This document shows, in pieces, positions 2,790 through 5,554 of a stretch of 5,554 nucleotides of DNA. Position 1 is the first letter of the stretch. Every line of letters starts with the position of its first letter. The translations under genes and the position numbers were made by a program. The DNA lies in the IMG/VR virus record IMGVR_UViG_2706794685_000013; one strand, given 5' to 3'. A model generated the notes under the pieces. That model worked only from the letters and a program-made list of their open reading frames with translations. It had not been told where the DNA came from and did no database searches. Source of the stretch: a virus. Lineage: Duplodnaviria > Heunggongvirae > Uroviricota > Caudoviricetes.

Positions 2790-3026
2790 TTCCACCACCA
2801 GCACGACAAGATGCCGCATACAGTGCCCCAGTCAGTCCAGTTTTCAGACAACCAGTGCGTCACCTTTTTGAAGGCGCTTTAAAGCACGTTTTAATCCAGG
2901 TCGGCCTGTCCTTGTTCCGCTTAATTTATCTTCAAATATTTGTTCATATCCTGCACAAACAAGAGCGTTTCGTTGCAGGTCTGTATTCTGGTCATTTGTT
3001 GATACCCTTACATAGCCAATCAGCAC
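2790..3026 (-). pseudogene. pin: Serine invertase of the Pin/Gin/Hin/Cin family, N-terminal 79 codons only, with GTG start and two in-frame TGA stops
   Basis: Translation VLIGYVRVSTNDQNTDLQRNALVCAGYEQIFEDKLSGTRTGRPGLKRALKRLQKGDALVV*KLD*LGHCMRHLVVLVVE matches Pin/Gin (MLIGYVRVSTNDQNTDLQRNALVCAGCEQIFEDKLSGTRTDRPGLKRALKRLQKGDTLVVWKLDRLGRSMKHLISLVGE), including the catalytic Ser in VRVSTNDQ. Stops replace Trp61 (TGG to TGA) and Arg65 (CGA to TGA). GGGAG lies 6 nt upstream of the GTG. No resolvase C-terminus or DNA-binding domain follows. Confidence 0.8.
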
Positions 3027-3080
3027 GCTGAATCTCCCGTCCAAAAGCACAAATCATGCCATGCAGGCCAGAAACCGCCA

Positions 3081-3106
3081 TTATCTAAAACCTCGGTTTA
3101 CGAGAA
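3081..3106. other. Invertase crossover site (gix/pix/cix-like 26-bp imperfect palindrome), TTATCTAAAACCTCGGTTTACGAGAA
   Basis: Reverse complement TTCTCGTAAACCGAGGTTTTAGATAA matches the gix consensus TTCCTGTAAACCGAGGTTTTGGATAA (as recalled) at about 24 of 26 positions. It sits between the invertase start and the start of the tail-fibre variable cassette, as in Mu, P1 and e14. Confidence 0.7.
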
Positions 3107-4067
3107 CTCGGCACAAGCGGGGAGAAAATACCGTTACTCAGTACAGCGAATACCTGGACTAATCGACAAACATTCAGCGGTGGCCTTTCTGGTGAACTAT
3201 CCGGCAATGCTTCTACAGCTGCAAAATTAAAAACTGCCAGGAAAATAAGCAATGTGGCTTTTGATGGTTCCTCCGATATCACATTAAAAGCAAGTCATGT
3301 TGGTGCGTTTGCCTTAGGGAAAACAGGAAGCACCGTTGCGAATGATAAAGCAGTTGGATGGAACTGGAGTAGCGGAGCCTATAACGCAACNNNNNNNNNN
3401 NNNNNNNNNNNNNNNNNNNNNNNNNNNNNNNNNNNNNNNNNNNNNNNNNNNNNNNNNNNNNNNNNNNNNNNNNNNNNNNNNNNNNNNNNNNNNNNNNNNN
3501 NNNNNNNNNNNNNNNNNNNNNNNNNNNNNNNNNNNNNNNNNNNNNNNNNNNNNNNNNNNNNNNNNNNNNNNNNNNNNNNNNNNNNNNNNNNNNNNNNNNN
3601 NNNNNNNNNNNNNNNNNNNNNNNNNNNNNNNNNNNNNNNNNNNNNNNNNNNNNNNNNNNNNNNNNNNNNNNNNNNNNNNNNNNNNNNNNNNNNNNGGTAA
3701 TTCGATTGTATTGGGTGATAATGACACGGGCTTTAAACAAAAAGGCGATGGTAATCTGGATGTTTATGCTAATAACGTCCATGTTATGCGCTTTGTCTCC
3801 GGAAGCATTCAAAGTAATAAAACCATAAATATTACGGGACGTGTTAATCCCTCGGATTACGGTAACTTTGATTCCCGCTATGTGAGAGATGTCAGACTTG
3901 GCACACGAGTTGTTTAGACCATGAAGAAAGGCGTGATGTATGAAAAATCAGGCCATGTAATCACGGGGCTTGGTATTATCGGTGAAGTCGATGGTGATGA
4001 TCCGGCAGTATTCAGACCAATACAAAAGTTAATTAACGGAACATGGTATAACGTATCGCAGGTATAA
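3089..4067 (+). pseudogene. stf: Side tail fibre variable C-terminal cassette (Sv), promoterless and not joined to a constant region in this orientation; masked 3391-3695; in-frame TAG at 3915-3917
   Basis: Open frame from inside the crossover site: NLGLRELGTSGEKIPLLSTANTWTNRQTFSGGLSGELSGNASTAAKLKTARKISNVAFDGSSDITLKASHVGAFALGKTGSTVANDKAVGWNWSSGAYNA... After the gap: [122 protein letters not shown], which matches the lambda-type Stf C-terminus. The two flanks are in different frames if the N-run length is literal. Confidence 0.8.
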
Positions 4068-4069
4068 TC

Positions 4070-4603
4070 ATGCAGCATTTAAAAAACATTGTCGCAGGTA
4101 ATCCAAAAACCGTTGAACAATACCAGCTAACAAAGAATTTTGATGTTATCTGGTTATGGTCCGAAGATGGAAAAAATTGGCATGAGGAATTAAAAAACTT
4201 TCAGGAGGATACAATAAAACTGGCTTACACAGTTGAGGGAATAATTATTGCTATAGACAAGGATGTATCAGCAATTAATCCAGAAGGTTTAAGTGTCGTT
4301 GAGTTGCCTGATATTACAGCAAATCGCCGGGCTGATATTTCGGGCAACTGGATGTTCAAAGATGGTGCGGTGATAAAGCGAACTTATACCGAGGAAGAGC
4401 AAAGGCAACAAGCGGAAAATGAAAAGCAGAGCCTGCTGCAGCTCGTCAGGGATAAAACCCAGCTGTGGGACTCTCAGCTACAGCTGGGCATCATTTCCGA
4501 TGAGAATAAACAAAAATTAACCGAGTGGATGCTCTATGCGCAGAAGGTTGAATCCACAGACACCTCCAGCCTGCCAGTAACGTTTCCCGAACAACCAGAA
4601 TGA
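4070..4603 (+). CDS. tfa: Tail fibre assembly protein Tfa (lambda Tfa / Mu U family)
   Basis: 177-aa [25 protein letters not shown]...[32 protein letters not shown] is 2 nt after the tail-fibre stop (TAAtcATG), the usual stf-tfa coupling. Confidence 0.9.
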
Positions 4604-4606
4604 GAG

Positions 4607-4636
4607 AAGGCCCGCTATCGGGCCTTAATTTTTATT
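4607..4636. terminator. Bidirectional intrinsic terminator between the convergent tfa genes: stem aaggcccg / cgggcctt (8 bp, loop ctat) followed by aatttttatt
   Basis: Perfect 8-bp GC-rich hairpin with a T tract, placed between the stops of the two convergent tfa genes. Confidence 0.6.
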
Positions 4637-5159
4637 CAGGCTTTTGTGGCCATTCAGGATTTGCCGTATCCACACGGCTGACCAGAACACTGTAGCGTTC
4701 CCATGCTTCCAGTCGTGTGCGTTCCTCGTCTGTTGCCATATTCAGCCTGACAGCTCGTTCCAGCGGCTGGATGACTGATTCAGCTTCGGAAAGCAATGCG
4801 GCCTTTTGTGATTCGGCCTGTTGTTGCAGTTCCTGTTCTGTATATTCCCTCTTTACTACTTTACCATCCAGAAACATCCATTTTCCGTTATTGTCTGCGT
4901 GACGATTTGCCGTAATATCAGGAACTTCAACTATGCTTAGCCCTTCAGGATTAATAGTTGAAACGTCTTTACTGACAGCAACGATGATGTTGTTCTCATC
5001 GTAAGCAATTTTTATGGTGTCTGGCTGAAAATTCTTTTGTTCCTCATACCAGTTTTTGCCATCTTCGCAAAAGAGCCATACCACGCCCGCTTTTTTAGTT
5101 AGCTGGTATTGTTCCGGTGTTTTCGGATTCCCGGCCTTAATATTTTTCAGGTGCATCAT
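4632..5159 (-). CDS. tfa: Tail fibre assembly protein Tfa, alternative copy on the opposite strand (Mu U-prime type)
   Basis: 175-aa [33 protein letters not shown]...[35 protein letters not shown] at 5159-5157 is 1 nt after the upstream fibre stop, with GGGGAG upstream. The longer ORF in the track uses an upstream TTG and is not preferred. Confidence 0.9.
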
Positions 5160-5160
5160 C

Positions 5161-5449
5161 TTAAACACTCCCCACGTTGTACCATATTCCCCCAATCAAT
5201 TTCTGAATTGGCCTTCTGGCAACAGTGTCGACAATATCATCCGCATTGCTGTTAATTGCGGCTGTTAAAACATAACCTGACGCATCGCCAAAGCCGTAGT
5301 CGCGCCATACGTTTTTATATTCAATGCTGCCAAGACGAATATCCCGAACGACATGATTATGCAGCCATGTGCTTAACCAGTTGTTTTCCCACACTGAACC
5401 ATAAATATCGCCACTAGACGCAACTTGCGCACCACTTCCCAGCGCAAAT
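5161..5449 (-). pseudogene. stf: Alternative tail fibre variable cassette (Sv-prime), C-terminal fragment only, truncated at its 5' side by the IS insertion
   Basis: Translation ...[95 protein letters not shown] shares the C-terminal [12 protein letters not shown] signature with the other cassette. The upstream part of the ORF in the track (MSVKLRLPQ) is IS-derived sequence. Confidence 0.75.
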
Positions 5450-5554
5450 TGAGGTAGCCTGAGTTTAACGGACACTCCTTCCTGAAATAGAATGGCATCA
5501 GAAGGAGCTAATAATGAGCAGAAAAACCCAACGTTACTCTAAAGAGTTCAAAGC
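5450..5554 (+). mobile_element. IS3-family insertion sequence (IS600-like), left end and start of orfA; continues beyond the window
   Basis: Element end begins TGAGGTAGCC (IS3-family ends start with TG), followed by AAGGAG and ATG at 5514 opening an ORF MSRKTQRYSKEFK..., which I recognise as the N-terminus of IS3-family OrfA proteins. Tail-fibre homology stops abruptly at 5449-5450. Confidence 0.6.
5514..5554 (+). CDS. IS3-family transposase OrfA, first 13 codons only (partial at window edge)
   Basis: AAGGAG 6 nt upstream of the ATG; MSRKTQRYSKEFK is typical of the start of the IS3-family OrfA helix-turn-helix region. Confidence 0.5.
   Translation, partial: MSRKTQRYSKEFK

Follow-up and report, generated by a model that had tools for sequence, protein, structure and literature searches.

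The amber codon in the tail-fibre cassette of the window, by which we mean the whole 5,554-nt stretch of DNA analysed here, very probably arose by an ordinary CAG-to-TAG nonsense mutation that has become fixed in Shigella sonnei; it lies in an invertible-segment cassette of a lambdoid prophage remnant that was already decaying. In the mechanism that we propose, a single C-to-T change would have converted a glutamine codon (CAG) to TAG where one of the two alternative fibre cassettes encodes the receptor-binding tip. The change would have arisen once and then become fixed in the S. sonnei lineage.

An amber codon interrupts the fibre reading frame

The TAG occupies positions 3915–3917 of the window and lies in frame with upstream sequence ending in FDSRYVRDVRLGTRVV, as judged from both the letters and their translation. 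The surrounding codons are GAT GTC AGA CTT GGC ACA CGA GTT GTT TAG ACC ATG. An earlier reading of this DNA, made from the sequence alone, had reported an in-frame amber codon inside a tail-fibre C-terminal cassette, and the codon is present as described. The variable C-terminal cassette on the 5' side of the stop (3101–3914, + strand) is 98.6–98.7% identical to the 3' part of an intact E. coli fibre gene (loci L001 and L013), and its unmasked copy in locus L005 gives a Pfam match to gp37_C. On the 3' side, the cut-off fibre tip (3918–4067, + strand) comprises the last 49 sense codons of the fibre and a TAA at 4065–4067. The sequence-only reading was right that the frame stays open to this TAA but counted 50 codons, one too many. 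It also described the TAA as coupled to the start of tfa. The two genes are indeed adjacent, but do not overlap, with a 2-nt spacer between the fibre TAA and the tfa ATG at 4070. The tfa gene itself (4070–4603, + strand) encodes the tail-fibre assembly chaperone of the TAG cassette, is intact at 177 aa, and matches Pfam Caudo_TAP (E 4.8e-34).

The runs of N in the window are masks that do not carry the true length of the sequence they replace, and frames and distances measured across them are not trustworthy. The run at 3391–3695, which covers the middle of the cassette, has 305 N where L005–L008 have 253 nt, and the run at 891–1145 has 255 N where identical chromosomes have 252 nt. All three unmasked pieces of the window are matched exactly by L005–L008. 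A frameshift across the run at 3391–3695 was considered and rejected: the apparent change of frame is an artefact because the mask does not preserve length, and L005 keeps one frame all the way from the crossover site (from 5084) to the TAG.

Relatives carry glutamine at this position and extend beyond it

The best E. coli match (98.9%) is NZ_OZ040035 (L001), which has an uninterrupted 934-aa fibre gene with CAG in place of TAG and the same 49 residues after it. CAG is also found in E. coli NCTC86 (L013) and EcPF40 (L002). Among metagenome and viral loci found with a pattern that left the first base of the codon free, 34 of 40 carry CAG (11/11 metagenome loci and 23/29 IMG/VR loci) and the other 6 carry TAG. 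Every complete copy among the metagenome and IMG/VR loci shares the C-terminus ...INGTWYNV(S/A)QV. The expectation of a glutamine in relatives thus holds, although the motif RLGTRVVQLM of the sequence-only reading does not, the orthologues reading RLGTRVVQTM. That a single CAG-to-TAG transition made the stop is likewise borne out by the CAG of the orthologues, which places the C-to-T change at 3915. The peptide encoded downstream is identical in the intact orthologues (L001, L013, L026, L028, L034, L039, and L045–L047), and by this identity we read it as homologous coding sequence and not as a chance open frame.

The fibre is a composite. Its description as a lambda-type Stf suits the N-terminal domain of the full-length orthologue, which is lambdoid (PF08400), but not the TAG-bearing tip, which is of the P2 gpH / Mu S type. 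The last ~300 residues are 87% identical at the amino acid level to P2-like gpH proteins, for example that of Yersinia phage L-413C, and have the same C-terminus. The alignment to the Mu S chains 5YVQ and 8JU3 likewise extends across the cut-off part, as far as RP(I/V)Q..INGTWYN, at the C-terminal end of Mu S. Because homologues from E. coli, from metagenomes and viruses, from P2-like phages, and from Mu extend past the TAG, this position is not the usual end of the fibre. The sequence-only reading had allowed for homologues that end here; the orthologues and P2-like gpH continue instead to the common end. A sense codon in the orthologues with a common end beyond it, and one base change at a real base, are what a nonsense pseudogene presents. 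Conservation of the TAG among homologues, which a readthrough gene would present, is absent, the codon being confined to one S. sonnei remnant.

The S. sonnei cassette is separated from L001 and L013 by 7–8 substitutions and one 3-nt deletion across 915 nt, a divergence of less than 1%. The 150 nt after the TAG show no differences from L013 and one synonymous difference from L001, where about one substitution would be expected at this divergence under selection or under none. Zero to one change in 150 nt is too few to test for selection after the stop in either direction. Preservation of the downstream frame had been offered as a clue, but it is uninformative because about one change is expected in either case. 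The earlier proposal of a very recent nonsense mutation or a suppressed amber is supported in its first half, since divergence from the E. coli orthologues is below 1%, and unsupported in its second. By this comparison, the mutation is recent when set against the separation from those orthologues. The 49 downstream codons would then still be open and identical to those of orthologues because the mutation is too young for further change to have built up. The lesson is a general one: below 1% divergence, an open frame downstream of a stop carries no meaning.

The TAG is a real base and is fixed in S. sonnei

A Tfa protein identical to that of the window is recorded in 4765 blocks of the collection. 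TAG is present in 10/10 of the independently assembled chromosomes (4.8–5.0 Mb) listed with it, and the TAG-bearing IMG/VR contigs (6/6) are all the same remnant. The ORFs on either side of the stop are also on record, each on at least 1000 contigs: one of 203 aa precedes the TAG and one of 48 aa follows it, the latter under the name 'putative tail fiber protein (GpH) [Shigella sonnei]'. Other record names for the flanking ORFs include 'putative bacteriophage tail protein [Shigella sonnei Ss046]' (Q3Z104), and an 875-aa version is found on 72 contigs. The feature is in this sense already known, with its flanking split ORFs publicly deposited as separate proteins. A short-query search of 5426 complete E. 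coli genomes returned 0 copies of the exact 65-nt TAG allele and 6 near matches, and exact-pattern scans of species-representative genomes returned no match to the TAG allele or to the codon-degenerate pattern.

Judged by the 10/10 chromosomes, the 6 IMG/VR contigs, and the records on at least 1000 contigs, the TAG is a real base that is fixed in the S. sonnei lineage. The sequence-only reading had raised the possibility of a sequencing error. Such an error, or one of assembly, with C as the true base, would explain the single-base difference from the orthologues and has nothing else in its favour; it would have to recur as the same base in every one of those independent assemblies and contigs, and to have created both of the widely recorded ORFs. 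Its probability is negligible, and by the independent assemblies we regard it as already refuted.

The cassette is a silent copy within an invertible segment

The right end of the window (5450–5554, + strand) is the left end of an IS3-family element, whose transposase genes (HTH_Tnp_1 and rve) start at the matching place in L005–L009. By its end sequence and by the beginning of its ORF, MSRKTQRYSKEFKA, we take this element to be IS600. To its left are two fibre C-termini that face one another, each with its own tfa: the stf C-terminus and tfa on the + strand, and tfa' with a remnant of the stf' C-terminus on the − strand. The chaperone of the opposed cassette, tfa' (4632–5159, − strand), is 175 aa long and matches Pfam Caudo_TAP (E 7.9e-37). 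An inverted repeat is formed by tfa 4070–4228 and tfa' 5001–5159. The stf' remnant (5161–5449, − strand) retains ~96 codons of the opposed fibre cassette and is cut by IS600, with homology to L011 and L004 ending at 5449. It lacks the constant N-terminal part of the fibre and the second crossover site.

A 26-bp crossover site lies at 3081–3106 (+ strand). Its sequence is TTATCTAAAACCTCGGTTTACGAGAA, comprising the half-sites TTATCTAAAACC and GGTTTACGAGAA on either side of a central TC, and the half-sites are exchanged among strains. In the window, the outer half is of the invertase-side type and the inner half is that of the TAG cassette. Translation of 3050–3130 reveals an in-frame TAA at 3086–3088, inside the crossover site, which closes the cassette frame at its 5' end. 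What the window holds is a fibre C-terminus that has no N-terminal attachment domain and is bounded by this TAA and interrupted by the TAG at 3915. Only one crossover site is present; its inverted partner is found in L001, L004, and L010–L013, and IS600 stands in its place here. Beside the segment, at 2844–3026 (− strand), is the stump of a Pin-type serine DNA invertase, consisting of the N-terminal 60 aa followed by tfa-fragment sequence (Pfam Resolvase, E 4.6e-15, profile positions 2–69 of 145). Gene calls in L004, L008, and L010 give it as 60 aa long, and a stump of this length adjoins the segment in L011 and L012 as well. The same truncation occurs in E. coli L001 and L013 at 99.2–99.4% identity, so that 60–68 N-terminal residues, and not an intact invertase, adjoin the segment in the relatives as well.

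Both orientations of the segment are found among S. sonnei chromosomes. In L011 and L012, where the fibre N-terminus is present and the TAG is retained, the constant part runs into the TAG cassette to give an 875-aa ORF followed by a 48-aa ORF. In L004, it is the opposed cassette that is joined to the fibre constant part, giving a 918-aa gene. We compared the half-sites of L011 and L012 with those of L004, L010, and the window; the sites in these L chromosomes are at 5064–5089 and 7980–8005. Because the half-sites are exchanged exactly around the central TC, the rearrangement is assigned to site-specific inversion. Homologous recombination between long inverted repeats was considered as the cause of the two orientations and set aside, as the exchange maps to the 26-bp sites and no match between the S. 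sonnei cassettes was reported over the ~770 nt that the cassettes share in E. coli. The arrangement in E. coli is different in this respect. The opposed cassettes of L001 (3435–4203 and 5653–6424), and likewise those of L013, have ~770 nt in common at 98% identity and are distinct only in their last ~55 codons, whereas the S. sonnei opposed cassette has another sequence. Lineages have evidently swapped cassettes.

By its position and structure, the TAG cassette in the window is a silent, headless copy belonging to an invertible segment, a point overlooked by the sequence-only reading. It would not be expressed as a fibre, given its silent orientation, its truncated invertase neighbour, and the TAA in the crossover site. 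It is also frozen in that orientation, since IS600 has taken away both the partner site and the constant part. The history of the segment appears to be longer than that of its invertase. Since the E. coli orthologues have the same stump at 99.2–99.4% identity, the stump predates the sonnei-specific TAG, and because the TAG is nevertheless found in both orientations, the segment must have inverted after its own invertase was lost. Inversion was presumably carried out in trans by an invertase encoded elsewhere. There is precedent in the e14 P segment, whose inversion in trans by PinQ of Qin is reported to yield a fibre chimera, StfE2, that acts in phage defence (PMC12529663). A comparable case is the one path by which this locus might turn out unusual, and we found no direct support for it. 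That continued inversion despite the stump points to a trans-acting invertase is a mildly useful by-product of this analysis.

In the orientation that joins the TAG cassette to the constant part, the product would be an 875-aa fibre without its last 49 residues. In PMC9608196, which cites the 5YVQ work, Mu Tfa is described as binding the distal fibre moiety, ensuring its folding and trimerisation, and staying bound. By homology with Mu S, the lost 49 residues would be part of the distal moiety that is bound by Tfa and meets the receptor, and because of this the truncated 875-aa fibre is most likely non-functional. Against a full loss, the intact tfa and the continued inversion leave room for some residual use of the locus.

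The surrounding prophage remnant is in decay

Insertion sequences are found at both ends of the window and elsewhere in the remnant. An IS1 end occupies positions 1–103, and a second copy of the IS sequence at 5450–5554 is present in L005 and L030. Beyond IS600 are lysis genes and not tail genes. Chromosomes L004 and L011 have an extra IS1 (~768 bp, with a ~10 bp duplication) near window position 1640. Because this copy is present in some S. sonnei strains, IS activity in the remnant is ongoing. In L011, the tail-tip gene J beside the fibre gene (1–2402) is represented by two ORFs, between which the frame is lost for a short distance and stops occur at 750 and 765. As J is split by frameshifts in this chromosome, the prophage is defective even in strains where the fibre segment is 'on'.

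Several further features were observed on the 5' side of the segment. Rfam matches above the gathering score were obtained for IsrK (443–517, + strand, 72.2 bits) and for C4 antisense RNA (541–628, + strand, 75.9 bits). These lie just 5' of a Rha-family gene (Phage_pRha) and overlap an ORF that is called Phage_ASH in related loci. The IsrK/C4/Rha region looks like a leftover control module of the P1/P7 immunity/antirepressor type. Direct repeats at 1601–1748 and 2651–2797 (~148 nt, 90% identical, 1049–1050 nt apart) consist of tfa fragments on the − strand. They bracket an apparently intact gene for a class I SAM-dependent methyltransferase (1977–2645), and the same arrangement of methyltransferase and tfa-fragment repeats is kept in E. 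coli L001 and L013. The methyltransferase looks like cargo inserted into the fibre region.

Alternative explanations

Near-cognate tRNA-Gln gives low-level readthrough of UAG in E. coli, and would restore the original glutamine here. The TAG might on this basis be read through, for example by an amber suppressor such as a supE-like tRNA-Gln with a CUA anticodon, to give a full-length fibre with Gln at this position. An open downstream frame identical to that of the orthologues is what such readthrough would leave, but is equally what less than 1% divergence would leave with no selection at all. We found nothing in support of amber suppression, which had been raised by the sequence-only reading: the 5,554-nt window contains no tRNA genes, its apparently intact methyltransferase gene itself ends at a TAG (2643–2645), and the element is otherwise dead. 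The window cassette would in any case yield no fibre product when read through, since it lacks the N-terminal part and is closed by the TAA at 3086–3088, and the prophage carries other lesions. Background readthrough would, moreover, almost never supply the three full-length chains of a trimer. We consider this explanation very improbable.

Retention of the truncated fibre, or of the cassette, for a host function is a different proposition, in which the amber would be neutral or adaptive and the locus might, for example, block adsorption of other phages, as is reported for StfE2. The inversion of the segment after the TAG arose, in spite of its truncated invertase, would sit well with continued use, as would the intact state of both tfa and tfa', and trans inversion with defence by the e14 fibre chimera is a precedent (PMC12529663). 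We found no sign of expression or selection, however, and the window cassette is headless and has lost its partner site, while the locus is being taken apart by IS insertions. On balance, a host function is very unlikely. It is likewise very unlikely in the more specific form of a segment that is still flipped by an invertase encoded elsewhere, with one product (the 875-aa fibre, a headless fragment, or Tfa) kept for anti-phage protection, and still less likely in the variant in which S. sonnei reads through the TAG. An S. sonnei-fixed nonsense mutation in a cassette of a decaying remnant is the explanation that we prefer.

Comparison with known systems

The segment resembles the G segment of Mu with Gin, the C segment of P1 with Cin, and the P segment of e14 with Pin. 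As in those systems, opposed sets of fibre C-terminus and tfa lie between 26-bp sites, a resolvase-family invertase gene adjoins the segment, and half-sites are exchanged around a central TC. It differs in that the invertase is a 60-aa stump, both in the window and in the E. coli orthologues, and in that the second site and the fibre constant part are replaced by IS600 in the window. The N-terminus of the fibre also sets it apart from Mu and P1, being of the lambdoid side-tail-fibre type (PF08400).

The tip is closest to the fibres P2 gpH and Mu S, the latter with chaperone U. Mu S shares with the TAG-cassette tip the motifs FDSRYVRDVRLGT and SGHVITG and one 13-residue stretch, and in both cases the tip is followed directly by a Caudo_TAP gene. 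The fibres of these functional phages are uninterrupted, whereas the S. sonnei fibre loses its last 49 residues to the amber codon.

The closest parallel to the event itself is gene decay in Shigella, which proceeds through pseudogenes and IS expansion (PMC7373316, PMC3218036, PMC2374995). The changes seen here show no notable difference from that pattern: a nonsense point mutation has become fixed in a Shigella lineage, it affects a prophage gene that is non-essential, and IS1 and IS600 have inserted around the fibre locus. The amber codon would thus be one more fixed pseudogene in a well-known process, and matters little beyond it.
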